Shown piece after piece: positions 2,341-30,951 of a stretch of DNA of 32,571 nt. Every line of letters begins with the position of its first letter. Position 1 is the first letter of the stretch. The notes beneath the pieces are model-generated. The model searched no databases. It was not told the origin of the DNA and saw only the letters and a program-made list of their open reading frames with translations. Both the position numbers and the translations under genes were made by a program. Source of the DNA: PVC group bacterium (GTDB lineage: Bacteria > Auribacterota > Erginobacteria > Erginobacterales > Erginobacteraceae); assembly GCA_043804695.1 (NCBI GenBank), contig JAZDIV010000141.1, positions 1-32,571 of the forward strand, read 5' to 3'.

Positions 2341-2426
2341 CTGACGTCTCATTATAGAATATGTGAATAGGATATTAACTTTATCCATCAAACTTACAAT
2401 AAAATTTTTCTGAAGGAAAAATTTTA

Positions 2427-3400: not shown

Positions 3401-3529
3401 GTATCAGAGAATCAGGGGACCAGTGGGAAGGGTATCAGAATATCAGGGGATCAGGTTAGGGAACCGGCCTCGCCGGATAACCTGATGTCCTGATATTCTA
3501 CCCACTGATATGCTGATAATCTGATATCC
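3401..3529. repeat. Inverted pair of degenerate 8-bp tandem arrays (ATCAG core)
   Basis: Left arm gtatcagagaatcag...gaatatcaggggatcaggtta; right arm taacctgatgtcctgatattc...ctgatatcc. Confidence 0.8.
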
Positions 3530-9470: not shown

Positions 9471-9499
9471 TAAATTAGCGAGCAAAGCGAGCTAATTTA
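9471..9499 (+). repeat. Start-codon-proximal hairpin, copy before murF
   Basis: TAAATTAGC-gagcaaagcga-GCTAATTTA, ending 2 nt before the ATG. Confidence 0.8.
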
Positions 9500-9501
9500 T
9501 A

Positions 9502-10962
9502 ATGGAACCGCAGACACTGCAAACCATCGTCGCCTGGTCGGGCGGGACACTGCTCAGCGGCGACCCGGCGGCGCGGACAACCGGCATCAGCATCGACAGC
9601 CGGTCCGTGCGGCCGGGAGAGCTTTTTCTGGCTCTCCCCGGAAAGAGATGCGATGGGCACGACTATGCCGCCGAGGCACTGTCCCGGCAGGCGGCCGGCG
9701 TGATTATCTCCCGGCCGGTCCCGGAAATCGGCCGGTGGCCGGCGGGAGGGGCCCTGATCCGGACGGCGGATTCTTTCCGGGCCCTGGCCGGCCTAGCCCG
9801 GGGGTACCGGGCTCTTTTTGACCTGACCGCCGTCGCCGTGACCGGCAGCAACGGCAAGACCACCACCAAGGACCTGATCGCCCGGCTCCTGAACGCCCGG
9901 ATGGAGACACTCGCCGCCCCGGCCAGTTATAACAATTTGGTCGGGCTCTCGTTGACTATTCTTCGATTGGAAAAGCGCCACCGGGCGGTCGTCTTTGAAC
10001 TGGGGATGAACCGGCCAGGAGAGATCCGGGAACTGGCGGACATCTGCCGTCCCGGGGCCGGGGTGATTACCAATGTCGGCCTGGCCCATATCGGTTATTT
10101 TGGGAGCGTCGATGAGATCGCTGCCGAGAAGGAGGCATTGCTGGGGGGATTGACGGGTGAAAAAGCGGCTTTTCTGAATGTCGACGACCGCCGGGTGGCC
10201 GCCATGGCCGGCTCCGCCCGGGGGCCGGTGATCGGGTTCGGATTCGGTCCCTCCGCCCGGATCCGGGCTTCCGATCCGCAACTGCTGCCGGACGGGGCCC
10301 GGTTCAGAGTCGCCCTCTCCGGAGGAGAATTGACGATCGATTCGCCGCTCCCCGGGCGCCACAATCTCTATAACCTTCTGGCCGCCCTGGCGGTCGCCGA
10401 CCATTGCGGCGTCCCTCCGGAGACGATACGGGAAACAGTCCGGACGGCCGCCCTCCCTCCCCGGCGCCTGGAGAAGGTCAGGGTCGGGGAGGCAACGGTC
10501 ATCAACGACGCCTATAACGCCAACCCCGCCTCGATGCGGGCCGCTCTCGAGGCCTGGCTGGGGATGGAAAGCGGCGGGCGCCGAATAATGGTCAGCGGCG
10601 ACATGAATGAACTGGGGACCTTTTCCGTTGCCGAGCATCGGGCCTGGGGAGCCGTCCTGGGCGGCGCCGGGCTGGATCGCCTGATTTTTGTCGGCCCCCG
10701 CTCGCGGGATGCCGCCGCCGCCGCCGTCGATCGGGGATTCCCCGGGAAGAAGGTGCACGCCGTCGGGGACTGTCGGGCGGCGGCGGCGGTGCTCCGTGAT
10801 GTCATTCGCCCGCGAGACAGCATCCTCATCAAGGGCTCCCGGGTGATGGAGATGGAGGAGATCGTGGAGGAGTTAACAAACAATACCAAAAGCAAAGCGC
10901 AAAATGCTGATGTCGATGCGGCCTGTACGGCATCTGAAAGGAATAATGGAGTACTGGAGTAA
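9502..10962 (+). CDS. murF: UDP-MurNAc-pentapeptide synthetase
   Basis: DSR, TGSNGKTTTK, ELGMN, DAYNANP.SM and KGSR motifs. The C-terminal tail runs into a repeat. Confidence 0.96.
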   Translation: MEPQTLQTIVAWSGGTLLSGDPAARTTGISIDSRSVRPGELFLALPGKRCDGHDYAAEALSRQAAGVIISRPVPEIGRWPAGGALIRTADSFRALAGLARGYRALFDLTAVAVTGSNGKTTTKDLIARLLNARMETLAAPASYNNLVGLSLTILRLEKRHRAVVFELGMNRPGEIRELADICRPGAGVITNVGLAHIGYFGSVDEIAAEKEALLGGLTGEKAAFLNVDDRRVAAMAGSARGPVIGFGFGPSARIRASDPQLLPDGARFRVALSGGELTIDSPLPGRHNLYNLLAALAVADHCGVPPETIRETVRTAALPPRRLEKVRVGEATVINDAYNANPASMRAALEAWLGMESGGRRIMVSGDMNELGTFSVAEHRAWGAVLGGAGLDRLIFVGPRSRDAAAAAVDRGFPGKKVHAVGDCRAAAAVLRDVIRPRDSILIKGSRVMEMEEIVEELTNNTKSKAQNADVDAACTASERNNGVLE

Positions 10963-11028
10963 TGGAGTGATGGAAACCGGCCGGGTGCCTGGGCAGTCTC
11001 TCCCAATACTCCAGTACTCCAATACTCC
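10940..11028. repeat. Inverted pair of 8-bp tandem arrays (GGAGTAAT / ATACTCCA)
   Basis: ggaataat ggagtact ggagtaat ggagtgat gg ... ccaatact ccagtact ccaatact cc. Confidence 0.85.
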
Positions 11029-14166: not shown

Positions 14167-14381
14167 CCTGTTCGAAAAAGTTTTCGAGCAGGAAATCCTA
14201 AATCCTAATATCGAAATCCTAAATAAATCCAAAATCCAAATGACCAAATATCCACATATCGCGACGCTGGGCAAAATTATTTTGAATTTATGATTTTGGT
14301 CATTTGATATTATTTAGGATTTCGTATTTTCCGCCAGAGGCGTATCAGCCTTTGGCTGTAGATTTTAGAATTTTAGAGCTT
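14167..14381. repeat. Hairpin plus inverted 7-bp arrays (AAATCCW) with a nested GC palindrome
   Basis: cctgttcgaaaa-ag-ttttcgagcagg, then aaatcct aaatcct aatatcg aaatcct...aatgacc aaat. The right arm tttggtcatttgatattatttaggatttcg is its inverse. Confidence 0.85.
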
Positions 14382-18336: not shown

Positions 18337-18492
18337 GGATCAGATAATCAGAAGATCAGTGGGCAGAATACCAGGATATCAGAGGATCAGTCGGCGCGGC
18401 CGGCGGGCAGTTTTAACTTTAGGCACTTCAGGCACTTCTCCGCCGGAGGCGGATCAGCCTCTGGTTGAAAACATTAGGCACTTTAGGCACTT
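18337..18492. repeat. Composite junction: 8-bp ATCAG array, then a 9-bp TTAGGCACT array interrupted by a double-hairpin palindrome
   Basis: ggatcaga taatcaga agatcagt...; tttaggcacttcaggcactt [ctccgccggaggcggatcagcctctggttga] ttaggcactttaggcactt, then ATG. Confidence 0.85.
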
Positions 18493-19452
18493 ATGATGGT
18501 AGGTCCGAAAAAATACGGCACGGTCGGTGTTCTCCTGGGCGGGCCATCCGCGGAGAGGGCGATCTCGCTCAAGTCGGGGAAGGCAGTGGCCGCCGCGCTC
18601 CGGGGAGCGGGTTTAACCGTCATCGAGATCGGTGAAGATGAAGATATCGTCGCCGGGCTCGCGGCCCGCCCTCCCGATGTCGCCTTCATCGCCCTTCACG
18701 GCCGTTTCGGAGAAGACGGCCAGATCCAAAAGCTTCTGGAAGAACGGAACATCCCCTATACCGGGTCGGGGATCGAAGCCAGCCGCCTGGCGATGGACAA
18801 GGTCGCCTCCCGCGCCCGCTTTGCCGCGGCCGGGCTGGCCGCCCCGACCTTTCGAGCATATGGTCCCGGGGATGGCCCGTCCGCCGCGCCGTTCCCCTTC
18901 CCGGTGGTGGTCAAGCCGGCCCGGGAGGGCTCCAGCATCGGGCTGAGCCTGGCCAAGACGGCCCGGCAGTTCGTGAAGGCCGTCGCGTTCGCCCGGCGCT
19001 ATGACGAGGTCATCCTGGTGGAAAGATATATTCCGGGGAGAGAGATGACCGTCGGCATCCTTGATGACGAGCCCCTGCCGGTGGTGGAGATTATCCCGCA
19101 AAATCCCTTCTTTGACTACGATGCGAAGTATGTCAAGGGAAGATCACAGTTCGTGGTCCCCGCGGTCCTTCCGGCTCCCGTCTGCCGGGACATTCAGCGG
19201 GTCGGCCTGACGGCCCATCGGGCTCTGGGGTGTTATGCCTGTTCCCGGGCCGATGTCATACTCGGCCGGGATGGGACACCGTATATTTTAGAAATCAATT
19301 CCATACCGGGATTCACCGCCACCAGCCTTCTGCCCCAGGCCGCGGCCTCGGCCGGGATGGACTTCGCGGCGCTTTGCCGCCGTCTCCTGGACCTGGCCCT
19401 GACCCGGAAGAACTATCGGAGATCGGGATCAACAAAAGGAGGAGTTTCATGA
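18493..19452 (+). CDS. ddl: D-alanine--D-alanine ligase
   Basis: GG.SAER.ISL.SG, LHG.FGEDG, VVKP.REGSS.G, YDAKY (Tyr, D-Ala-D-Ala type) and LEINSIPG motifs. Confidence 0.97.
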   Translation: MMVGPKKYGTVGVLLGGPSAERAISLKSGKAVAAALRGAGLTVIEIGEDEDIVAGLAARPPDVAFIALHGRFGEDGQIQKLLEERNIPYTGSGIEASRLAMDKVASRARFAAAGLAAPTFRAYGPGDGPSAAPFPFPVVVKPAREGSSIGLSLAKTARQFVKAVAFARRYDEVILVERYIPGREMTVGILDDEPLPVVEIIPQNPFFDYDAKYVKGRSQFVVPAVLPAPVCRDIQRVGLTAHRALGCYACSRADVILGRDGTPYILEINSIPGFTATSLLPQAAASAGMDFAALCRRLLDLALTRKNYRRSGSTKGGVS

Positions 19453-20285
19453 AATGGCTTTCATTGAGCAGCAAGCTCAGCCGCCCCCGCTCGAATGTGA
19501 AGATGAACGCGGCGGTCAAGCGGCGGAAAAAGAAAAACTCCGCTCCCGCCGGTTCCCGGCCCGGCGGGGGGCGGAGGGCGGGGAGTGTCATCCTGTTCAT
19601 CCTCTTTCTCGCCGCCCTGGGCGGGGGAGGGTGGTGGCTGATGCGGAGCTCGAAAATGTTTATCGTCAGGGAGATCCGGATCCGCAACAACCATGCCTAT
19701 ACCGAGCAAGAGATAATGGAGATGACCGGTCTGGAGACGGGGGGAAACATTTTTTCCCTGGATCCCGCCGCCGCCCGGGACAACCTCCTTCATAATAGTG
19801 ATTTCCGCGACGCCCGCGTGGAACGCATTTTCCCGGACCTGGTCCAGGTCGATGTCGTGGAGCGCGAGCCCCGCGCCCGGGTGCATTTCGGGCAGCTCTA
19901 TACGATCGACGACAGGGGGGTTGTTCTCGGCCCCCGCAAATCGGCTCCGGAGGCCCGGCTCCCGATCATCCGCGGGCTGAAGGTGGTCAATAACAGCCGG
20001 GATCTGTCCCCGCCCGACAAGAAGGACGCCTGTCTGCGCCTCCTGCGAGAACTGGAGGAGCAGGGCATCGGGTCTTTGGTCAGGATCGATGAAATCAGGA
20101 TCTTCTCCTCTGACCTGATCGAGATGAAAACGGAAGGGGAGATGGAGATCACCCTCGGCCAGGAGGATTACGGCGAGCAGCTGATGCGTCTGAAGACGGT
20201 GCTCAACAAGCTGGGATCGGATCTGGACCGGGCCCGGGAGGTGGATCTCCGATACTCCCGGATCCCGGTGGTCTTCGATGATTGA
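19449..20285 (+). CDS. ftsQ: Cell division protein FtsQ/DivIB
   Basis: AAGGAGG RBS, ATG overlapping the ddl stop, basic N-tail, one TM helix, POTRA domain (V.R.FPD...V.ER.P) and C-terminal VDLRY. Confidence 0.92.
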   Translation: MKWLSLSSKLSRPRSNVKMNAAVKRRKKKNSAPAGSRPGGGRRAGSVILFILFLAALGGGGWWLMRSSKMFIVREIRIRNNHAYTEQEIMEMTGLETGGNIFSLDPAAARDNLLHNSDFRDARVERIFPDLVQVDVVEREPRARVHFGQLYTIDDRGVVLGPRKSAPEARLPIIRGLKVVNNSRDLSPPDKKDACLRLLRELEEQGIGSLVRIDEIRIFSSDLIEMKTEGEMEITLGQEDYGEQLMRLKTVLNKLGSDLDRAREVDLRYSRIPVVFDD

Positions 20286-20287
20286 AA

Positions 20288-20353
20288 TCTTATTTTTCCT
20301 CCGGAAAAATAAGAGTGAATTAATTAAATTAACGACCGTAGGGCGTTAATTTA
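20288..20353. repeat. Two hairpins filling the ftsQ-ftsA junction
   Basis: TCTTATTTTTCC-tcc-GGAAAAATAAGA (20288-20314) and TAAATTAACG-accgtaggg-CGTTAATTTA (20325-20353). Confidence 0.85.
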
Positions 20354-20358
20354 TAAGA

Positions 20359-21585
20359 ATGAGTAAGCACCGCGACATCATCGCCGCCCTCGATGTGGGA
20401 ACGACCAAGATCTGCCTTCTGGTGGCCGAGCGGGTCGAAAACGGAGATATTCGCATTCTGAGCGCGGGAACCCAGCCGTCCCGCGGTTTGCGCAAGGGCG
20501 AGGTGATCAATGTTGCCCAGACCGTGGACTCGATCGAGAAGACCTTTTCCCAGGTGGAGAACATCTGCGAGGTCGAGATCAGTTCCGTCTTCGCCGGAAT
20601 TACGGGAAGCCATATCCAGAGTTACAACAGCCGGGCGGTTTTGCCGGTCGCCAACCCGGCGGTCGGAGTGACGGAAAAAGACATGCTCAACGCGATCGAG
20701 GCCGCCCGCTCCGTCGCGCTCCCCCGGGAATGCGAGATTTTGCATACCATCCCGCAGGAGTTCTCGGTTGATGACCGGGAGGGGATCGCCGACCCCGAAG
20801 GGATGCAGGGGACCCGGCTGGAGGCCCGGGTCCACCTGGTGACCGGCCGGACGGCCGCGATCCGGGACATCGCAAACTGCATCAACCAGGCCGGTCTCGC
20901 CGTCGCTGAAGTCGTCCTCCAGCATCTGGCCTCCAGCCTGGCGGTGGTGAGGAAGGAGGAACAGCAGTCCGGGGTGGTGCTGGTCGACATCGGCGGCGGG
21001 ACCACGGATTATGTTTTTCTCCGGGATGAGACTGTCTGGCACACGGGGGTCTTGTCCGTGGGCGGCGATCACGTCACCAATGATATCAGCCTGGGGATGA
21101 AGCTTCTCCTCCGCCAGGCCGAGGAACTGAAAAAGAAATACGGTTCCGCCCTTCACGATCGGGTGAAAGATGACGCCGGTCTCTTCCTGCCGGAGGCCCT
21201 GGTCCGGTCCGTTGACGGCCTTTCCCGCAGGAAGCTCTGCCAGATCATCGAGCTGCGGCTGGTTGAGCTTTTCCGGTTGATCCGCCGGGATCTGGAAAAA
21301 GCAGGTCATTTTCAGTCCATCGGTTCGGGTCTGGTGCTGACCGGGGGGAGTGCCCTGCTGAAGAATATCGCCGACCTGGCCGAGCGGGAAACCGGTTTGC
21401 CGGTCAGGATCGGTACCCCGGCCGGCGTCTCGGGCCTGCGGGAAGTGATCGACAGCCCGGTCTATTCCACCGCCGTCGGGCTGATCAAATACGGCTTCCG
21501 GCCGGAGCGTCCCCGGCCGGCCGGGGACGCCTCTCCGGTGAAGTTCATCGGCGGATTGAAACGCTGGCTGGGACGGTATTTTTAA
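20359..21585 (+). CDS. ftsA: Cell division protein FtsA
   Basis: ALDVGTTKI, VDIGGGTT, GGDHVT.DI, VLTGG.A.L and P.YSTAVGL motifs; C-terminal amphipathic helix LKRWLGRYF. Confidence 0.97.
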   Translation: MSKHRDIIAALDVGTTKICLLVAERVENGDIRILSAGTQPSRGLRKGEVINVAQTVDSIEKTFSQVENICEVEISSVFAGITGSHIQSYNSRAVLPVANPAVGVTEKDMLNAIEAARSVALPRECEILHTIPQEFSVDDREGIADPEGMQGTRLEARVHLVTGRTAAIRDIANCINQAGLAVAEVVLQHLASSLAVVRKEEQQSGVVLVDIGGGTTDYVFLRDETVWHTGVLSVGGDHVTNDISLGMKLLLRQAEELKKKYGSALHDRVKDDAGLFLPEALVRSVDGLSRRKLCQIIELRLVELFRLIRRDLEKAGHFQSIGSGLVLTGGSALLKNIADLAERETGLPVRIGTPAGVSGLREVIDSPVYSTAVGLIKYGFRPERPRPAGDASPVKFIGGLKRWLGRYF

Positions 21586-21588
21586 TCT

Positions 21589-21753
21589 ACTGCGTTGGAA
21601 TTTCAATAATTATTAGCCACCAAGACACAAAGACACCAAGAAAAAAAAGGGTAAAATATTCACCTTATTCGATTTTCCTTAGTGCCTTGGTGTCTTGATG
21701 GCGGAAAGGTGCGCCGAAGGCGCTAATTTATCATATTTTTCCTCAGGAAAAAT
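21589..21753. repeat. Composite junction: left-end motif, inverted 9-bp arrays, half hairpin, TTTTTCC/GGAAAAA hairpin
   Basis: actgcgttggaatttcaataat; gccaccaagacacaaagacaccaag ... cttagtgccttggtgtcttgatggc (21/25 inverted match); gcgcc-gaa-ggcgctaatttat; atttttcc-tca-ggaaaaat. Confidence 0.85.
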
Positions 21754-21768
21754 TGGCGGAGAAGACAC

Positions 21769-22899
21769 ATGAGCAAGGGAAAAACTGAAAAGAAAATTTC
21801 CCTCTGGGGGGTCGGCCACTGGGGCGTGCGGGTGGCCGGGTCGATGCCGGATGAGTATCGTCGCCGGCTGAAAATCGTGGCGGTCGATTCGGATGTCCAG
21901 TCCCTGATCTGTTCGCCGGTCGCTGACAAGCTAACCCTCGGATGGGAGGAAGCCGCCGGGCGGTCCGCCGGCGGTGATGGCGGCAAGGGCGAAGAAGCAT
22001 TCCGGGAGAGTGCGTCGGCCATCAAGGAGAAACTGGCTGATTGCCGGGTGGCCCTGATCGTCGGCGGACTGGGAGGGGGAACGGGGAGCAGCCTGATCCC
22101 GGCGCTCTGCGGCACCGCGCGCGGTTTGAAGATTCTGACCCTGGCCCTGGTGACGCGCCCGTTTGCCTTTGAGGGGAAAAAGAAGAACCTGCTCTTCCAG
22201 CGGGCGCGGGAGGGGATTGAAAAAAGCGGGGCGGGCCTGGCCTGTTTTTCCCTGGATCGCCTGGTCGGCAAGGCTGAAGACGATACCCCTCACGACGAGG
22301 TTTTCCAACGCTGCGACCGGATATTGCAGGAAGCGGTCGAGTGCGTGATCGACTGCCTGTCGCCATCCCCCGGGTCGGGATGCGACGGCGCCGCGCTGGA
22401 AAATATTTTGACCGCGCCCGGAGAAACCGTGATGGGCGCGTATGAGACGGCGAAGCCGGAGAATCTGGTGGCGGCGGCGAAGGGCGCGTTCTCGGCGCTT
22501 TCTCTCCGACCCGCCGAACTGGGCCGGGCGCGGGGATTCTTGATTCAGATTGAGGCTGCCGGGCCGATTCCCTTCCGCCATGTCGAGCAGGCGGTCGGAG
22601 CGGTCTCCGGGCGGCTGGCCGAGGACGCGGACCTCCTCTACGCCGTCACCCGAAAAAAGGAAGCGGGGGACAAGATCATCGTCCGCATCATCGCCTTCGG
22701 GATTCCGGAGAGGGGAGGGGAGAAGATCGCGTCCGCGATCCCGGTCACCATGACGACCGACGTCCGCCCGGCTGTTCAGACGGAGATCGACTTCAAGAAG
22801 CTGACCCGGGGGGTGTTTGCCGACACCGGCCCCACGCTTCTCGACGGGGAGGACCTGGACATCCCGACATTCGTCAGGAAAGGGGTCGAGCTGGAATAA
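21769..22899 (+). CDS. ftsZ: Divergent cell division protein FtsZ
   Basis: GLGGGTGS tubulin signature, VTRPF.FEG, C-terminal GEDLDIPTFVR, position after ftsA. The T1 and T7 loops are non-canonical. Confidence 0.9.
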   Translation: MSKGKTEKKISLWGVGHWGVRVAGSMPDEYRRRLKIVAVDSDVQSLICSPVADKLTLGWEEAAGRSAGGDGGKGEEAFRESASAIKEKLADCRVALIVGGLGGGTGSSLIPALCGTARGLKILTLALVTRPFAFEGKKKNLLFQRAREGIEKSGAGLACFSLDRLVGKAEDDTPHDEVFQRCDRILQEAVECVIDCLSPSPGSGCDGAALENILTAPGETVMGAYETAKPENLVAAAKGAFSALSLRPAELGRARGFLIQIEAAGPIPFRHVEQAVGAVSGRLAEDADLLYAVTRKKEAGDKIIVRIIAFGIPERGGEKIASAIPVTMTTDVRPAVQTEIDFKKLTRGVFADTGPTLLDGEDLDIPTFVRKGVELE

Positions 22900-22901
22900 T
22901 T

Positions 22902-23125
22902 TCCTATTTCGGAATGTCAATAATCGGGAAATCCGATTATTGACATTCCGAAATAGGAGAAAAAGCAACTAAAGTAAAAAAATATTAGCTCTGGCTTTAT
23001 TATAGTAAGGGCTTACCGTTACGGACTGATCAGTTGGACGTGAACTGATCCTATGGTTGTTATCAATCAATTTTATATTCTAAAAAATGAAATTTTTCTA
23101 AATTAGCGCCGGAGGCGCTAATTTA
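22902..23125 (+). mobile_element. ~225-bp MITE-like element, copy 1
   Basis: Perfect 26-bp inverted repeat (22902-22958), AT-rich core, and terminal hairpin TAAATTAGCGCC-GGA-GGCGCTAATTTA; homologous to 28041-28270. Mobility is inferred. Confidence 0.6.
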
Positions 23126-23847
23126 TGATTTTTTTCATCAGGATCGCCAAGTTACTGCTGGGGCTCTTCCTCATCCCCGCCTGCGTGTCGGCCACGGTGG
23201 TCTTCGGCCGGGAGATCTTCCCGTCCCTGAAGACCGAGATCTGGTTCTTCGCCGGGCTCTTCAGTTACCTGCTGCTGCTGGCCGTTTTCCAGCAGCCGAT
23301 CCGGACCTATATTTTCGGGCACGAACTGACCCACGTTCTCTGGGTCTGGCTCTTCGGCGGACGGGTCAAGGGCTTCCGGGCGGCGGCAACGGGCGGGGAA
23401 GTCCGCACGTCCAAATCGAATTTTCTCATCTTTCTGGCCCCGTATTTTTTCCCCCTCTACAGCGCGCTGGCCATCGCCGGCTACGGTCTCCTGACCGTTT
23501 TTTTCCAGCTGCCGCCGGTCGCGATGCGGATTCTCAGTTACCTGCTTGGTTTTACCTGGGCGTTTCACTTCACCTTGACCCTGTACGTGCTCATTCAGGG
23601 ACAGCCGGATGTTTGGGCCGCCGGCCGGATTTTTTCCTTCCCTTTTATATATCTCGTGAATGTGGTGGTCCTGGCATCGCTGATTATCTTCGTCACGCCC
23701 CGTCTCTCCTCCGGGACATACTTCTCCCGCCTCTGGGAAAAAGCGTGTCTCGACTACCGGTATCTCTGGACGGCCGGCCCCGGGATCTGCGAGGAGAACT
23801 ACCGCGCCTGCCGGGATAAAGTAGCCGCCCTCGTTGCCGGAAGGTGA
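23125..23847 (+). CDS. Membrane protein with HExxH motif (M50/M50B-like metallopeptidase)
   Basis: Several TM segments; FGHELTH...LFGG.V..F...GGEV...LAPYFFP pattern. Confidence 0.7.
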   Translation: MIFFIRIAKLLLGLFLIPACVSATVVFGREIFPSLKTEIWFFAGLFSYLLLLAVFQQPIRTYIFGHELTHVLWVWLFGGRVKGFRAAATGGEVRTSKSNFLIFLAPYFFPLYSALAIAGYGLLTVFFQLPPVAMRILSYLLGFTWAFHFTLTLYVLIQGQPDVWAAGRIFSFPFIYLVNVVVLASLIIFVTPRLSSGTYFSRLWEKACLDYRYLWTAGPGICEENYRACRDKVAALVAGR

Positions 23848-23986
23848 GCAAAAGCGCCTTCCCGGTTGCCGTCTTTGAACAGTCCCCCCGAAGAGCGGAA
23901 TATCTCTCCTTCCGGGCGCCCGCCGGCCGGGGATACCGGGCAGAAGGGGTGCCGGGCGGGAGGAGAATGCCCGGTGAAGTAAAGTC

Positions 23987-24016
23987 TTGAAATTTTCCCG
24001 GCCGGTCGGGTATCAT
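23987..24016 (+). promoter_or_regulatory. Candidate sigma70 promoter
   Basis: TTGAAA, 18-bp spacer, TATCAT, upstream of the GGAGG RBS and ATG 24069. Confidence 0.4.
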
Positions 24017-24068
24017 ACCATTAAGCAGTTCTTGGAAAAAAATATCAATCGGAGGAGACAGAATCGCC

Positions 24069-24641
24069 ATGAAGAAAAAAGTGACGGCCGGCGCGGTGCT
24101 TTTCCTGGGGGTTGTCTTCATTCTGGCTGTTCCCGCCCGGGGGAGAGATCTCTTTAACATCCTGCGAGTCCGGACCATACCCAACCCGGTGATCGGTGTT
24201 TTTCCGGGAGACGAGGCGCTGGAGGTCACCTTCACGCTTCGCTCTGAACGATGGATCCCGGCGGGGTGGAGCCTCCGGTATTATGATGATTCCCGACGGT
24301 GGCTGGGCACCCAGACCACGGCCTATTTCAGTTCCTCGCAGAACAACCCCTATCTCGTCAGCAAGGGCAGGCTTAAAGGGGGAAATGTCTATGTCGCCCT
24401 CTTCCCGCTCCGTGCGGATGCTCCCTACCTGGTCGTGGCCCTGGGCGACGGATTGGAACAGAAGGCGATTCTCTTTCCGTACACCGATCTCCTTCAGGAT
24501 TTTTCCGTGCCGGTAAAAAGGCTGAACGATGAGATTTCCCGCTCGGACTATGTGTTTATTGAAAAGGAAGAGGATGAAGTGGACATACTGATTGTCAGCG
24601 AGCAATCGCCCGCCGGAATGGCAGGCAAGACCGGGGAATAG
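24069..24641 (+). CDS. Hypothetical secreted protein (190 aa)
   Basis: GGAGG RBS and a typical signal peptide (MKKKVTAGAVLFLGVVFILAVPARG). Confidence 0.75.
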   Translation: MKKKVTAGAVLFLGVVFILAVPARGRDLFNILRVRTIPNPVIGVFPGDEALEVTFTLRSERWIPAGWSLRYYDDSRRWLGTQTTAYFSSSQNNPYLVSKGRLKGGNVYVALFPLRADAPYLVVALGDGLEQKAILFPYTDLLQDFSVPVKRLNDEISRSDYVFIEKEEDEVDILIVSEQSPAGMAGKTGE

Positions 24642-24719
24642 GGGCTGAACTTCAGCGAAAAGGTTGCTGCCCGGGCTTGTTTCCGGTCTCCTCGGGACTA
24701 TACGTTTTACGGCTATTAA

Positions 24720-24887
24720 AGGGGGCGAGGTAGGGAGAAAAAACTGAACGTCCAACGCCGAACGTTCAACGTCGAACATCGAACGTCACCGGGGCGCGGG
24801 ACTAATTTTCTTTCTCTGTGTTCTCCGTGGTTCAAAGAGGGGGCGAGGTAGAGGGAACTCTTGCGTATTTTGCGCTTTTTTGCGGCT
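24720..24887. repeat. Stacked 7-bp and 9-bp arrays bracketed by a 14-bp direct repeat
   Basis: AGGGGGCGAGGTAG at 24720 and 24838; (SAACGTC)x6 at 24746-24787; ctctgtgttctccgtggttc; ttgcgtattttgcgcttttttgcggct. Confidence 0.85.
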
Positions 24888-24893
24888 GCTGCC

Positions 24894-26738
24894 ATGATGG
24901 CTTTTATCGAGGCAATCAAAGAGCGGATCCTGATCGGCGACGGCGCCATGGGGACGCTGCTCCTCTCTAAGGGGATACGCCCCCAGCAGAGTTTCGAATC
25001 CCTCTGCCTGACCGAGCCGGCGGAGATAAAAGCGGTCCATCAGGAGTATATCGCCGCCGGGGCCGACCTGATTGAGACCAACACCTTCGGGGCCAACCGA
25101 TTCCGTCTGCGACCCGCGGGGTATGAACGGCAGGCGGCGCGGATCAATCAGGCGGCCGCGGCCCTGGCCCGGGACGCCGCCGGTGATGCTGTTTTCGTGG
25201 CTGGAGCGGTGGGAATGATCCCCACGCCGGACCGCGAGGCGGCCGGTCAGCGGCCTTCCGAGGGAGGGGAACTCTTCGAGGCCTATCGGGAGCAGATCGC
25301 GGCTCTCGCCGGAGGCGGCGTCGACCTCATCCTCCTGGAGACATTTGAAGAGTGGGAGAATCTCGATCTCGCCATCCGGGCCGCCCGGGAGGTTACCGAT
25401 CTCCCCGTCATCGCCCAGATGGCCTTATCCAACCGCGGCCTCTGCATCTTCGGCCGCATCGCGGAGATCTACTGCCGGCAGGCGCTCGCTGCCGGGGCGT
25501 CTGTCTTCGGGAGCAACTGCGGCGGGGGCTTTTCCTCGGTCCGGGAGGTCCTGAAAGGCGCGGCGGGCGTTGAAGGAGCTCTGCTGTCCGCTTTCCCCAA
25601 CGCCGGTATCCCGCAGATGATCCAGGGAAGGATCATTTATCCGGCTGCTCCGGAGTATTTCGCCGAAAAATGTCTGGAGCTTCTCCCGCTCGGCGTCCGT
25701 CTGATCGGCGGCTGCTGCGGGACCACCCCCCGGCACATCCGTGCTCTCCGCCAGGCGCTGGGCCGGCTCTCCGCCGAACCGGCGGCCCGCCGGGTTGCCC
25801 CGCCGCCCCGGATTGCCGTCGTTCCCCGATCGGAAAAGTCCGTGGAGGGAGGTTTTCTCTCCAGCCTCCGGCGGGACCGGCTCCCGATCATTGTCGAGAT
25901 CGACCCCCCCGCTTCCCCCGACCTGGAGAGGGTGGTCCAGGGCGCCCTGGCGGTCAAAAACGCCGGCGCCGACGCGGTCTCGATGGCGGACAATCCTCTG
26001 GCCGCCCTCAGGGTCAGCTCGATCTGCGCCGGGGGGGTTGTCCGGCGCCGAGCGGGCATCCAGGTCATCCCCCACCTGACCACCCGGGATCATAATATCC
26101 TCGGCCTCCAGTCCATCCTCCTGGGGGCCCAGGTGGAGGGACTGGAGGCCGTCCTGGCCGTTACCGGCGATCCGGCCGGGAAGAGCGACCAGCCCGGGAA
26201 CCGGGGGATATTCACCATCAACAGCATCCACCTGGTGGGCTTGATCGATCAGCTGAACCGGGGCCACATGCTCTCGGGCAAAACAATCGCCCATCCGACC
26301 AGCCTCTCGATCGGGGTCGCCTTTAACGCCAACGCCCCCAACCTGGAGGCGGAAGTGCTCAAGCTCCGCAGGAAGGTCGACAGCGGCGCCCGCTTTGCGC
26401 TGACCCAGCCCGTCTTTACCGCCGATCTGGTCCGGAAAGTCCTGGCGGCCTGTTCCGGCATCGACATCAAGATCTTCGTCGGGATCTATCCCCTCCTCTC
26501 GCTCCGGAACGCCGAGTTCATGGAGAACGAGGTCCCCGGGATCGCCATCCCCCGGGCGGTGAAAGAGAGGATCGCCGGCGCCGGGGACGGCCCCGCCCAG
26601 CGCCGGGCCGGCCTGGAGCTCGCCGCCGGTCTGATCGATGAGATCAGGCCGAAGATCGACGGGCTTTATATCATCAGCCCCCTCAATAAATGGGCCGTCC
26701 CTCTCGAGCTGGTTCGGCGCGTGCGCTCGCAGGAATAG
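24894..26738 (+). CDS. Bifunctional homocysteine S-methyltransferase / methylenetetrahydrofolate reductase (YitJ-like)
   Basis: DGAMGT, AGAD.IETNTFGAN, G.NC, PNAG.P and IGGCCGTTP in the HMT domain; VEIDPP, AD.P.A, H.T.RD.N, AVTGDP, TQPVF and NEVPGI in the MTHFR domain. Confidence 0.93.
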   Translation: MMAFIEAIKERILIGDGAMGTLLLSKGIRPQQSFESLCLTEPAEIKAVHQEYIAAGADLIETNTFGANRFRLRPAGYERQAARINQAAAALARDAAGDAVFVAGAVGMIPTPDREAAGQRPSEGGELFEAYREQIAALAGGGVDLILLETFEEWENLDLAIRAAREVTDLPVIAQMALSNRGLCIFGRIAEIYCRQALAAGASVFGSNCGGGFSSVREVLKGAAGVEGALLSAFPNAGIPQMIQGRIIYPAAPEYFAEKCLELLPLGVRLIGGCCGTTPRHIRALRQALGRLSAEPAARRVAPPPRIAVVPRSEKSVEGGFLSSLRRDRLPIIVEIDPPASPDLERVVQGALAVKNAGADAVSMADNPLAALRVSSICAGGVVRRRAGIQVIPHLTTRDHNILGLQSILLGAQVEGLEAVLAVTGDPAGKSDQPGNRGIFTINSIHLVGLIDQLNRGHMLSGKTIAHPTSLSIGVAFNANAPNLEAEVLKLRRKVDSGARFALTQPVFTADLVRKVLAACSGIDIKIFVGIYPLLSLRNAEFMENEVPGIAIPRAVKERIAGAGDGPAQRRAGLELAAGLIDEIRPKIDGLYIISPLNKWAVPLELVRRVRSQE

Positions 26739-26818
26739 AAGCCCTTCCCGTTCCGGGCATTCCTGCCCGCCGATTGCCGCCGCCGCATTCCTTCTTGATG
26801 CGGGACGTATGCACAATC

Positions 26819-26889
26819 AGCCGATTTCCGCCTGCCGGCAGGTGGAAATCGGTTAAAATTCTTGACTGAGCATCTCAGCATAGTAGAAT
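26819..26889 (+). promoter_or_regulatory. Long hairpin (CCTGCCGGCAGG core) followed by a candidate gap promoter
   Basis: ccgatttccgcctgccggcaggtggaaatcgg; TTGACT (26862), 16-bp spacer, TAGAAT (26884). Confidence 0.5.
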
Positions 26890-26944
26890 TCGCCCCAATC
26901 AGGAACCGCGCCCCACCGGGCACACGAATTAACCGGAGGATATC

Positions 26945-27952
26945 ATGAGTGTAAAGATCGGAATCAACGGGTTCGGGCGGATCGGCCGCCAGATTTTCAG
27001 AATTCTCAACGCGGATCCCGCTTTCGAGGTGGCCGCCATCAACGACCTGACCGATGCCTCCACCCTGGCCCATCTGCTCAAGTACGATTCCGTCCACGGG
27101 AAATTCCCGGGGACGATCAAGGTCTCCGGCGGCAGCCTGGTGGTCAACGGGAAGGAGACAAAGGTTCTCTCCGTTAAAGATCCGGCCGAACTGCCCTGGA
27201 AAGAAGAGGGGGTGGATATCGTGGTCGAGGCGACCGGCGTTTTCAGGAATGTCACCGACCTGAAAAAGCATATCGAGGCCGGCGCCAAAAAAGTTCTCCT
27301 GACGGTCCCCCCCAAGAAAGATCCGGACGGCGAGGTCGAGCTGATCGTGATCGGTGTCAACGACAGGAAACTAACCCCGGCGATGCGGTTTATATCCAAC
27401 GCCAGCTGCACCACCAACTGCCTGGCTCCGATTGCCAAGGTTCTTAACGACAGCTTCGGGATCGAGAGAGGGCTGATGACGACGGTCCATTCCTACACCA
27501 ACGATCAGAGGATACTGGATCTCCCCCACTCGGACCTCCGCCGCGCCCGGGCGGCGGCCGTCAGCATGATCCCCACCACCACCGGCGCCGCCAAGGCGGT
27601 CGGCAAGGTGCTCCCCGAGCTGAAAGGCAGGCTGGACGGTTACGCCCTCCGGGTCCCGACCCCGGACGGCTCCCTGGTCGACCTGACCGTAGAGCTGTCA
27701 AGGGACGCCACGGTTGACGAGGTCAATGCCGCCATCGAGAAAGCGGCATCCGGGGAGATGAAGGGGATTCTGGAGTACGAGCGGGATCCCATCGTCTCGA
27801 TCGATGTCGTCGGGAACCCCGCCTCGTCCGTATTCGACTCCCTGGCGACGATGGAGGTCGGGAAGAGGATGATCAAGGTTCTCGCCTGGTACGACAACGA
27901 ATGGGGATATTCCAACCGCTGCGTCGACCTGCTCAGGTTGATGGCAAAATAA
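26945..27952 (+). CDS. gap: Type I glyceraldehyde-3-phosphate dehydrogenase
   Basis: INGFGRIGR, SNASCTTNCLAP, IPTTTGAAKA and WYDNEWGYS motifs; GGAGG RBS. Confidence 0.99.
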   Translation: MSVKIGINGFGRIGRQIFRILNADPAFEVAAINDLTDASTLAHLLKYDSVHGKFPGTIKVSGGSLVVNGKETKVLSVKDPAELPWKEEGVDIVVEATGVFRNVTDLKKHIEAGAKKVLLTVPPKKDPDGEVELIVIGVNDRKLTPAMRFISNASCTTNCLAPIAKVLNDSFGIERGLMTTVHSYTNDQRILDLPHSDLRRARAAAVSMIPTTTGAAKAVGKVLPELKGRLDGYALRVPTPDGSLVDLTVELSRDATVDEVNAAIEKAASGEMKGILEYERDPIVSIDVVGNPASSVFDSLATMEVGKRMIKVLAWYDNEWGYSNRCVDLLRLMAK

Positions 27953-28012
27953 AAGCCGGTGTTACAGGGATGCCGATTCTGAAAATCTCATATGGGGGTT
28001 CTGACAGCAGAT

Positions 28013-28270
28013 AAATAACAAATCACAAGCACCAAATAACACTGTTTCGGAATTTCAATAATCGGAAAAATCCGATTATTGAACTCCCGAAACAGACGAA
28101 AAAGCAATCAAGATGAGATTAAGCCATTTTTGGATTATGATAAAATGGGTTACTGTTGCTTATTAAGTAGGTGCATACCAACTAATTCCTGGGGCATCAT
28201 CAGTCTGGTACAACTTTTAAAGGTTCAATTAACTCCAATTTACTAAATTAGCGCCGGAGGCGCTAATTTA
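28013..28270 (+). mobile_element. Truncated 7-bp array followed by MITE-like element copy 2
   Basis: aaataac aaatcac aagcacc aaataac; 25-bp inverted repeat with 2 mismatches (28042-28095); terminal hairpin identical to 23099-23125. Confidence 0.6.
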
Positions 28271-28272
28271 TA

Positions 28273-29499
28273 ATGGCTAAACTGGGGATAGAAGATCTCG
28301 ATCTGAAGGGAAAGCGGGTCCTGGTCAGGGTTGACTTCAATGTCCCGCTCGATGGGGACCGCCGGATTACCGACGACACCCGGATCCGGGCCGCCCTCCC
28401 CACGATCAGGTACGTGATCGAGCATGGCGGGAAGGCGATTCTCGTCTCTCACCTCGGCCGTCCGAAAGGGAAGAGGGATCCGGCGTACAGTCTGGGCCCG
28501 GTCGCGGTCCGTCTCTTCGAACTGCTTGATCAACGGGTGGTCTTCGTCGATGACTGCATCGGGCCCGGGGCGAAAGAGGCGGTGAAGAAGATGAAGGACG
28601 GGGACGTCGTCCTCCTCGAGAACCTCCGGTTTCATCCCGGCGAGGAGGCGGGAGACGACGCCTTTGCGCGCGAGCTGGCCGCTCTGGCCGATCTCTACAT
28701 CGACGACGCCTTCGGCACCGCCCACCGCGCCCACGCCTCCATGGTCGGGGTGACCGCCTACCTCGACCGCAGCGCCGCCGGTTTCCTCCTTCAGAAAGAG
28801 ATCGACTACCTGGGAAAAGCTCTCGCGGATCCGGAGCGGCCCTTCATCGCCATCCTCGGCGGAGCCAAGGTCTCCGACAAGATCAAGGTGATCGAGAACC
28901 TGGTCCGCAGCGTCGATTCGATCCTGATCGGGGGCGCCATGGCCTACACGTTCATGAAGGCGATCGGGGTTCCGGTCGGGGCCTCCCGGGTCGAGGAGAT
29001 CATCGAGGACAAGAAAGGAATGGCCATTGATGTCGCCGGACTGGTCCGGGGCATCCTGGAAAAAGCCGCCGCCCGCGGGGTCGAGGTCCTTCTTCCCATC
29101 GACCATGTCGTGGCGGATCGGTTTTCTGAAGACGCCGCGGTCAGGGTCGTCCCCCGGGACGGGATCGCCGCCGGCTGGATGGGAATGGACATCGGCCCCA
29201 GGACCGGCCGGCTGTACGGCGATAAGATCGGGAAGGCCGGGACCGTCGTCTGGAACGGCCCGATGGGGGTGTTCGAGATGAAGCCCTTTGCCGCGGGAAC
29301 GCTGGCCGTTGCCCGGGCCCTGGCCGAATCCTCCGCCCTCTCGATCATCGGCGGGGGCGATTCCGTGGCCGCCGTCAACCGGAGCGGCCTGGCCGGCCGG
29401 ATCACCCACATCTCGACCGGGGGCGGGGCCTCGCTGGAGTTCCTGGAAGGGAAAGTCCTCCCCGGCATCGCCGCCCTGACTGATGGTGTCGCGTCTTGA
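28273..29499 (+). CDS. pgk: Phosphoglycerate kinase
   Basis: [47 protein letters not shown] and STGGGASLE motifs. Confidence 0.99.
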
Positions 29500-29649
29500 C
29501 ATTGGACATTATCATTTTTTGCAGGCATGTTATCTAATTTGCGCCAGGTTAGAAAAATAGTGTATTAGCAGTTTTCTGTTTTTATGATAATGTCCAATGT
29601 CAAGACGCGACACCTATAAGGATAATGTCCAATGTCAAGACGCGACACC
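29485..29649. repeat. Perfect 31-bp inverted repeat with a tandem duplicate of the right arm
   Basis: GGTGTCGCGTCTTGACATTGGACATTATCAT (29485-29515), its exact inverse (29584-29614), and a further 29-bp copy (29621-29649). Confidence 0.92.
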
Positions 29650-30402
29650 AAGCCTTTAATCGCCGGCAACTGGAAACTTCACAAGACCATCCCCGAGGCG
29701 CTGGAACTGGCCGGGGCGTTGAAACGGGACCTCGCCGCCTGTACCGGCGCCGACCTGCTCGTCTGCCCGCCTTTCGTCGACCTGAAGCCGGTCGCCGACC
29801 TGCTTCAGGGAAGCTCCATCGCCCTTGGCGGCCAGGACCTTTTCTGGGAAGACGCCGGTGCCTTCACGGGGGCGATTTCCGGGCCGATGCTCAGGTCGGC
29901 GGGATGCAGCCACGTCATCATCGGCCATTCGGAAAGGAGAGAGCATTTCGGAGACACCGATCAGATCGTGAATAAAAAAATCAGGGCGGCGATCACCTCC
30001 GCTCTCACCCCGATCCTCTGCGTGGGGGAGTCGCTGGAGAAGCGGGAGCAGAAAGTGACCAAGGAGTTTTTACGCAAGCAGCTGGGGCTGGATATCCGGG
30101 GGATCGGCCCGGAGTGGATAGCCCGGATAATCGTTGCCTATGAGCCGATCTGGGCGATCGGGACCGGGATGACGGCCACCCCCCGGCAGGCCGGGGAAAC
30201 CCACCGTTTCATCCGGGAACTCTTCGCCGAACATTACAACGATTCGATCGCGAACAACATCCGGATTCTTTACGGGGGAAGCGTCAAGCCGGATAACGCC
30301 CGGGTTCTGATCGCCGAGGCGGACGTGGACGGCTTCCTGGTTGGCGGCGCCAGCCTGGATGCCGCTGCCTTCGTCGCCATTGCCCGCTGCAGCACAATGT
30401 GA
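29632..30402 (+). CDS. tpiA: Triosephosphate isomerase
   Basis: [29 protein letters not shown] and DG.LVGGASL motifs. Confidence 0.99.
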
Positions 30403-30520
30403 TCTTATTTTTCCTTCGGAAAAATAAGAATGGGCAAGCAATGACCCGATATTGCAGGGATATTTTAAAGTAACTTCATGTAATTCATATAAATTTGCGA
30501 GCGCAGCGAGCTAATTTATA
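30403..30520. repeat. Two hairpins in the tpiA-secG junction, same pair as at ftsQ-ftsA
   Basis: TCTTATTTTTCC-ttc-GGAAAAATAAGA (30403-30429) and TATAAATTtGC-gagcgcagcga-GCTAATTTATA (30488-30520). Confidence 0.85.
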
Positions 30521-30918: not shown

Positions 30919-30951
30919 TTGAACGTTCAACGTTGAACGTTCAACGTTGAA
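30919..30951. repeat. Self-palindromic 7/14-bp array between convergent genes
   Basis: TTGAACGTTCAACG TTGAACGTTCAACG TTGAA. Confidence 0.9.

Follow-up and report, generated by a model that had tools for sequence, protein, structure and literature searches.

Hairpin families with C-GNA-G loops in a PVC group bacterium, probable end modules of REP/BIME-like dispersed repeats

REP, BIME and REPIN repeats are intergenic palindromes of 20-40 nt that are present in hundreds of copies, with strand-specific loops, conserved mismatches and lineage-specific expansion, and that form mosaics and opposite-orientation doublets with spacers (accessible parts of PMC3733652, PMC8266576 and PMC3116915). The two hairpin families described here, A and B, share these features and are multicopy extragenic palindromes within the REP size range. 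Their loops resemble those of the d(GNA) DNA mini-hairpins, with a sheared G.A triloop, a free middle base and a C-G closing pair (PMC3201870, in the text available, where an AAA variant is cited in the reference list). The mini-hairpin is a physical motif whereas A and B are genomic families, and it explains the choice of loop, not the spread. Partial likenesses were also seen to IS200/IS605 elements (subterminal ssDNA hairpins at two unlike ends, insertion without duplication) and to integron attC sites (folded ssDNA beside stop and start codons).

Hairpins of the window and their fold rules

The window (the whole stretch of DNA analysed, 32,571 nt) contained all nine loops flagged in the preliminary description, and the tandem G.A mismatches reported for two copies were verified (9471-9499 and 30490-30518). 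Most copies belonged to two 27-29-nt families, A and B (Table 1). The flagged hairpins mix several unrelated repeat families, and at 20338 just two base pairs separate the loop from an A.G mismatch. Between 18439 and 30510, 20 intergenic perfect stems of at least 5 bp were listed: 12 carried triloops, six of them C-GNA-G. Stems of at least 11 bp numbered six in this interval; four were C-GNA-G and two (22928, 28067) had 4-5-nt loops. The copy at the right end of the table's tpi-secG pair closes a ~116-nt B-spacer-A cassette, with a homologue between ftsQ and ftsA in genome G001.

Table 1. Hairpin features of the window (gene calls were made with our own caller and checked against orthologues within the window)
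Feature	Positions	Strand	Loop	Context
Family B copy, variant	2400..2426	+	t-GAA-g	Flush on the 5' end of tRNA-Val (2427)
Family A, 29-nt tandem-G.A form	9471..9499	+	c-AAA-g (9484)	Ends 2 nt upstream of murF ATG (9502)
30-nt double-hairpin module, another copy	14330..14358	.		Within a periodic repeat array
30-nt double-hairpin module	18438..18468	+	c-GGA-g (18445)	Inserted within an array of short-period repeats upstream of ddl; different family, not A/B
Family B, 12-bp T/A stem	20288..20314	-	c-GGA-g, bottom strand	2 nt past ftsQ stop; forms the left end of a B-A cassette
Family A, 29-nt variant, single A.G mismatch	20325..20353	+	c-GTA-g (20338)	5 nt upstream of ftsA ATG (20359)
Family A, 5' arm truncated	21711..21730	+	c-GAA-g (21716)	
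B-like hairpin, exception to the GNA rule	21735..21753	-	c-TGA-g (21743)	Upstream of ftsZ
Long hairpin of GGAATTT linker module	22903..22957	.	5 nt	Left end of cassette 3' of ftsZ
Family A, perfect 27-nt form	23099..23125	+	c-GGA-g (23111)	Ends on the A of the following ATG (23125)
Second long linker-module hairpin	28042..28095	.	4 nt	Left end of gap-pgk cassette
Family A, perfect 27-nt form	28244..28270	+	c-GGA-g (28256)	2 nt upstream of pgk ATG (28273)
Family B, T/A stem	30403..30429	-	c-GAA-g, bottom strand	Begins immediately past tpi stop
Family A, tandem-G.A form	30490..30518	+	c-GCA-g (30503)	Followed by AAGGAG and secG ATG (30535)

Genome-wide, family A (27-29 nt, GC core, often tandem G.A) had 282 loci, six of them inside called genes, and family B (27-29 nt, 12-bp T/A stem) had 218 copies; smaller repeat families occur alongside. 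In the 98 tandem-type A copies, loop position 3 was invariably A, position 1 was G (93) or A (5) and position 2 was free, with all four bases represented. The closing pair was C-G in 96 of these copies, the inner pair was G-C in 70, C-G in 23 and A-T in 2, the G.A mismatch was present in 95, and the stems covaried around the mismatches. In support of the preliminary description, this loop spectrum agrees with the DNA GNA/ANA triloop rule (PMC3201870, in the text available). Pairing in family B exceeded expectation up to pair 11-12 and was at chance level from pair 13, and 116 distinct 3' arms were found. Mismatches on the GNA strand were more often A.C than G.T (31 vs 15 and 20 vs 8), which counts against the interpretation favoured below because such an excess is not expected under simple fold tolerance. 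Folding energies separated neither DNA from RNA nor the two strands, which is likewise counted against it.

Triloops were counted in 1608 intergenic regions shorter than 600 nt, with 10 dinucleotide shuffles as control. The expected GNA enrichment was found: C-GNA-G accounted for 364 of 771 intergenic triloops on stems of at least 6 bp (shuffles: mean 2.0, maximum 5) and for 228 of 384 on stems of at least 8 bp (shuffle mean 0.3), counts that overstate independence because the copies are related. In coding DNA the share was 17/126. C-GNA-G loops were carried on 51 distinct stem 5-mers, and 21 of the 39 common stem classes were mostly C-GNA-G/C-ANA-G. Tandem GA/GA hairpins numbered 93, vs 5-20 for each of six other tandem mismatches, and RNA-type tetraloops were scarce in the intergenic count (cUUCGg 1, cGAAAg 2).

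Gene borders, RNA signals and turnover

Of 406 copies, 237 had the 3' foot within 6 nt of a start, a stop or a tRNA end, and 13 the 5' foot. GNA was on the coding strand in start-side copies (132 vs 4) and on the template strand in stop-side copies (63 vs 12). Twelve B copies were flush with tRNAs (seven at 5' ends and five at 3' ends; 36 tRNAs in all), and 107 of the 282 A loci ended 0-5 nt upstream of a start. Polarity tracks the border, not transcription, and the A/B hairpins are therefore not terminators. The terminator behaviour that would have spoken against the preliminary description was not seen: stop-side transcripts carry the complementary UNC loop without a U tract. Intrinsic terminators, with a GC stem and a U tract on the transcribed strand past the stop, were accordingly rejected as a class for A/B. 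A terminator scan returned 20 sites (13.4 +/- 3.4 in shuffles) and missed both B hairpins, and an Rfam search matched RNase P and tRNA only, with none for the hairpins.

A and B could still act mainly at the RNA level, as terminators, hairpins that control translation or marks for tRNA processing, and be spread by host selection. The A loci ending just before starts speak for this, as do GGA loops, which were enriched at starts in family B (53/77 vs 38/141, p 2e-9) and in A27 (24/47 vs 24/84, p 0.014), with a GGAG-to-ATG distance of 6-16 nt (mode 6-8 in ordinary genes). This enrichment shows selection at the RNA level and is counted against a DNA-based reading, as is the ability of tandem G.A pairs to stabilise RNA too. 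However, a primary RNA role is improbable given the UNC loops without U tract, the near-shuffle terminator scan, the lack of an Rfam match, transcribed strands without G.U excess, the absence of hairpins at orthologues in relatives, and the GCA loop, without a Shine-Dalgarno core, in 29 of 57 start-flush tandem-GA copies. Because GGA loops are enriched at starts, the data suggest that they are used secondarily as ribosome-binding (Shine-Dalgarno) sites.

Orthologous gaps in relatives held other repeats or merely a few bases, and A/B neighbours were syntenic core genes, not cassettes. Among 247 orthologous starts, a hairpin was present in both genomes G000 and G001 at 13 and in one genome only at 14 and 12; G001 thus has a hairpin at 13 of 27 hairpin-bearing starts vs 12 of 220 others. 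A and B were swapped at some orthologous sites; some B copies were conserved with their flanks between the two genomes, which is counted against the favoured interpretation. An exact-pattern search of 79 genomes of the phylum found A in 5 and B in 11. Family A also occurred in Scalindua and Tritonobacter records, with near-identical copies in another phylum; one Scalindua copy had a RAYT-like ORF at a distance of about 0.9 kb. Viral contigs gave 0 matches to the A pattern, and the gap-pgk cassette had no match in phage and plasmid collections.

Alternatively, the hairpins might be domesticated host signals, namely short cruciforms that supercoiling extrudes at gene borders and to which a nucleoid, gyrase-like or polymerase-associated protein binds. 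In phage N4 promoters, loops of the C-GNA-G type favour extrusion, long C-GNA-G stems occur at about 11 per 100 kb, and the starts shared with G001 point the same way; their absence or rarity in most relatives and the nested insertions that destroy modules (see below) leave this reading with little probability.

Cassettes and candidate mechanisms

A and B were joined back to back via 50-250-nt non-coding spacers, and 47 of 56 gene-free back-to-back pairs consisted of one A and one B, bearing out the earlier proposal that left and right modules are read on opposite strands. Recurring spacers and the GGAATTT linker give an alternating-hairpin, conserved-linker mosaic of the BIME type. Nested insertions were clean, 24-30 nt long and at fixed points: the 30-mer was inserted in the linker module without duplication (68 empty linker copies were found), and nine B copies were split at the loop tip. 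A coding origin of the spacers, hinted at by one alignment, was rejected (in four clusters, codon-phase conservation was flat and each frame had about 2-3 stops). Comparison of 103 mobile-gene proteins with the spacers gave no matches, and no mobile gene lay between A/B pairs in G000 or in 800 kb of G001.

The preliminary description had pointed to HUH transposases and integron integrases; this link was not borne out, as none of the Y1, GIY-YIG and tyrosine-recombinase genes examined had A/B flanks. The six Y1 loci of G000 each had their own repeats, and in five other carriers (incomplete genomes, 30 of 69 matches examined) none was A/B-flanked among the matches listed. TnpB had no match in G000 (88% complete), IS200-like TnpA loci in relatives were without A/B, and none of 23 GIY-YIG loci examined out of 28 (five long UvrC-like ones were dropped) was A/B-flanked. 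No recurrent neighbour gene was found among 938 ORFs at 141 loci. No enzyme gene is thus tied to A/B, which is counted against the favoured interpretation; counted for it is that the same genome hosts other enzyme-linked repeat systems. An Ssn-like 95-aa gene is flanked by GTCATTGCGA-type repeats, which likewise use C-GNA-G loops and G.A pairs. Separately, tRNA-associated GIY-YIG loci carry the 30-mer and related modules, one of them with a B hairpin preceding the tRNA copy next to it.

The A/B hairpins probably form the ends of dispersed, non-coding repeats of the REP/BIME kind, which a putative enzyme would process as folded DNA, and we infer that they are recognised as ssDNA. One strand would fold in a replication or repair gap or by cruciform extrusion; a candidate nicking enzyme acting in trans, of the Y1 HUH or small GIY-YIG type, would cut the 3' foot or the loop and would copy or exchange modules. 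Repeated one-sided insertion/deletion could then creep outward until selection halts it where a start codon, a stop codon or the end of a tRNA is reached, and GGA-loop copies may be retained as ribosome-binding sites. The flush placement before the essential genes murF, ftsA and pgk would represent a selfish repeat recruited to this function.

Enzyme-free self-propagation, in which stable GNA mini-hairpins stall replication while host template switching and gene conversion leave the stems perfectly paired and carry copies of the modules from site to site, agrees with the lack of a linked enzyme, with the non-coding spacers and with B stems that vary yet remain paired, orthologous sites included. 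It is nonetheless unlikely, as the sharp 12-bp stem limit, the clean insertions at fixed points, the strict polarity and the near-identical A copies in another phylum are easier to obtain with a specific enzyme.

A bolder form of the enzyme-based interpretation, doubtful but possible, is a mobile unit defined by structure, whose putative enzyme gauges a 12-bp stem with a C-GNA-G cap, acts at the 3' foot and rewrites gaps outward, up to the exact gene and tRNA borders. If so, the stem sequence would be largely irrelevant to the enzyme, ribosome-binding sites of essential genes would have been replaced by the element's loop, and a new ssDNA recombination system would be common to PVC-group phyla. 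Without an enzyme, A/B would be a well-characterised repeat variant. The fold rules are legible from natural variation and hence provide ready substrates and negative controls for an enzyme search.

Comparison with known systems

No paper on A/B was found in the literature covered, which lay outside most subscription journals and bioRxiv supplements. An attC identity was rejected: A is too short, and complementary R boxes (RYYYAAC/GTTRRRY, 57-141 nt apart) flanked 0 of 282 A loci, contrary to the suggested integron link. The two ends of IS200/IS605 elements are read on one strand, whereas the A/B ends are on opposite strands, and derivation from such an element was rejected as no autonomous parent with tnpA/tnpB lay between A/B ends in G000 or in 800 kb of G001. 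Cassette ends are not TIRs as in MITEs, and their 3' flanks often start with TA but vary. Ssn-related motifs (NTS/SRM) are likewise hairpin repeats, cut as ssDNA by small GIY-YIG nucleases (PMC11893778, accessible part), a cleavage that may also apply to A/B. The SRM pattern published there is not fitted by A/B (no match in the window contig and 37 across the genome), and the loop, described there as dispensable for SsnA, is in A/B the most conserved part. In contrast to REPs, A/B flank no RAYT gene among those examined and lack the GTAG/CGTC tag, found at the 5' foot in 1/282 A loci and, with a looser tag pattern, in 10/131 long B copies. The two cassette ends are unrelated, non-complementary hairpins that fold separately, not the one long stem of REPINs. 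Finally, unlike in REPs, length and fold characterise B better than its sequence does, and the 3' feet of A/B directly abut starts, stops and the ends of tRNAs.

Triloop statistics and anatomy of the hairpin families

The window carries the cell-division (dcw) cluster followed by gap-pgk-tpi-secG, and its source genome, G000, comprises 155 contigs (2.97 Mb, 88% complete). All loops reported in the preliminary description were recovered at their positions, and the flagged window hairpins were all intergenic. A count of triloops capping perfect stems of 6 bp or more across 1608 intergenic regions gave 771, of which 364 were C-GNA-G; shuffled controls had a mean of 2.0. The C-GNA-G hairpin pattern is real and far from chance; the signal was spread over many stem families. 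RNA-type loops were found once (cUUCGg) and twice (cGAAAg) in the intergenic set, and there were 93 tandem GA/GA hairpins (other tandem mismatches: 5-20). Within the window, the C-GNA-G rule held for 4 of 6 long stems and 6 of 12 triloops listed between 18439 and 30510; the remainder broke it.

Family A (arms TAAATTAGCG and complement) occupied 282 loci genome-wide, six inside called genes, either as a perfect 27-mer or, with tandem G.A, as a 29-mer. Orientation of 98 copies of the longer form was assigned independently of the loop; in these, loop position 3 was always A, position 1 was G (93) or A (5) and position 2 showed every base. The closing pair was C-G in 96 copies, and the pair above the mismatches alternated between G-C, C-G and A-T. 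This pattern fits the C-G-closed triloop with a sheared G.A pair that PMC3201870 describes in DNA.

Family B has a T-run/A-run stem with a sharp end at 12 bp. Its 3' arms (116 distinct in 218 copies) paired well over column expectation, and nine copies were split at their own loop tip. Of the 258 T-run hairpins with a C/G closing pair, 215 had C-GNA-G. The suggestion that modules lie on opposite strands was borne out: A and B were arranged back to back, one on each strand. Of the 56 divergent pairs with no gene between them, 47 combined one A with one B, and cassette spacers were recurring and non-coding. No mobile genes were found between A/B pairs in G000 and 800 kb of a relative's genome (G001). 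The 30-nt double hairpin that includes the loop at 18445, separate from both families, inserts into a GGAATTT linker without duplication (68 empty linker copies).

Coordinates of repeats and selected genes in the window and on other G000 contigs
Location	Feature	Remarks
20288-20353	A/B cassette	
30403-30518	A/B cassette	
29485-29649	Inverted-repeat pair matching the Y1 gene ends of contig C43; gene missing	Provides final pgk codons and tpi start; end motif has 12 matches genome-wide
21616-21702	Repeats that flank the GxxExxY gene of contig C127, here as an empty inverted pair	
10940-11028; 14180-14330; 18339-18490; 24745-24790; 30920-30950	Short-period (7-9 nt) arrays, often inverted pairs	Same type flanks four-helix-bundle genes elsewhere in G000
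3471-3525; 18339-18393	55-nt repeat common to two gaps	Opposite orientation
26821-26852	Additional hairpin	5' of gap promoter region
21769-22899	ftsZ-like gene	NCBIfam score 136, far below the cut-off (295 bits); 43-70% identity to relatives' copies
C32:936-1097	Third tyrosine recombinase, beyond two XerC/D-like	First 2.6 kb of contig without A/B
C152:8975-12370	In-frame GIY-YIG domain in a type I restriction subunit-like protein	Several short in-frame insertions, apparently repeat-derived

Polarity at gene borders and turnover

The GNA strand ran toward the nearest border: at starts it was the coding strand (132 vs 4), at stops the template strand (63 vs 12). Of 406 copies, 237 had the 3' foot within 6 nt of a border and 13 the 5' foot, and 12 family B copies were flush with tRNA ends, 5' and 3' alike. 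Because the GNA strand faces the border, a transcript carries GNA where the hairpin is at a start but UNC where it is at a stop, and this speaks against a single RNA function. An RNA-level overlay is nevertheless present: start-flush copies were enriched in GGA loops (family B: 53/77 vs 38/141), which set GGAG 6-16 nt upstream of ATG. A primary RNA role is considered highly improbable. The terminator reading was rejected: a terminator scan stayed near background and missed both B hairpins flagged at first. G.U pairs were not enriched on transcribed strands.

Among 247 starts orthologous between G000 and G001, a hairpin was present in both genomes at 13 and in one only at 26; A and B were swapped at some sites, and B was kept at others. 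The orthologous dcw and gap-pgk gaps of relatives held other repeats or few bases, and the G001 homologue of the tpi-secG cassette lay between ftsQ and ftsA. That the hairpins are a domesticated cruciform signal is very doubtful. Of 79 genomes of the phylum searched with exact patterns, 5 contained A and 11 contained B. Among the matches listed, family A also occurred in Ca. Tritonobacter lacicola, Ca. Scalindua rubra, Scalinduaceae and Planctomycetia (record titles), often directly 5' of ATG and sometimes as the sole element between stop and start; metagenomes contributed 76 loci.

Proposed folded-DNA model and candidate enzymes

To the observed fold rules, polarity, cassettes and turnover, the model that we consider probable adds recognition as single-stranded DNA, an enzyme and a ratchet, all of which we infer: the repeats would be handled as folded DNA and nicked by a putative enzyme, creep would run outward from the 3' foot, selection would stop it at gene borders, and GGA loops would afterwards be retained as ribosome-binding sites. 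Two points that count against the folded-DNA model are folding energies that did not separate DNA from RNA and an excess of A.C over G.T mismatches, a bias that it leaves without explanation. According to PMC5737381, ssDNA and RNA motifs are computationally hard to distinguish.

Candidate genes in G000 were six Y1 proteins, one Ssn-like GIY-YIG, one GxxExxY and eight four-helix-bundle matches; the loci examined carried their own repeats and no A/B, and TnpB had no match in this 88% complete genome. In five other carriers, none of the loci examined (30 of 69 Y1, 23 of 28 GIY-YIG) was A/B-flanked. The link to HUH transposases evoked earlier found no support at the Y1 loci examined. That no enzyme was tied to A/B among the examined G000 and carrier loci counts against the folded-DNA model. 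Template switching, which would require no enzyme, is a rival judged rather unlikely.

Small tRNA-associated GIY-YIG genes carry the 30-nt double hairpin and related GNA modules. At L286 (G001), L267, L277, L273 and L274, loci in A/B-carrying genomes, such small genes adjoin or sit between duplicated tRNA genes; at L286 the T-loop of the tRNA copy is interrupted by the double hairpin. At L268, L271, L275 and L289 (a Scalindua record), they appear, from flanks inspected by eye, inserted in four-helix-bundle-like or GxxExxY-like genes.

Comparison with known systems

A/B failed the tests for REP tags and attC boxes as well as for the SRM pattern; the attC result leaves the proposed link to integron integrases unsupported. 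Because these tests failed and none of the enzyme loci examined was A/B-flanked, both families fall outside tagged REP, Ssn, IS200/IS605 and attC, as defined in PMC3733652, PMC11893778, PMC8266576 and PMC3116915, yet they behave like the REP/BIME repeats described in PMC3733652, PMC8266576 and PMC3116915.
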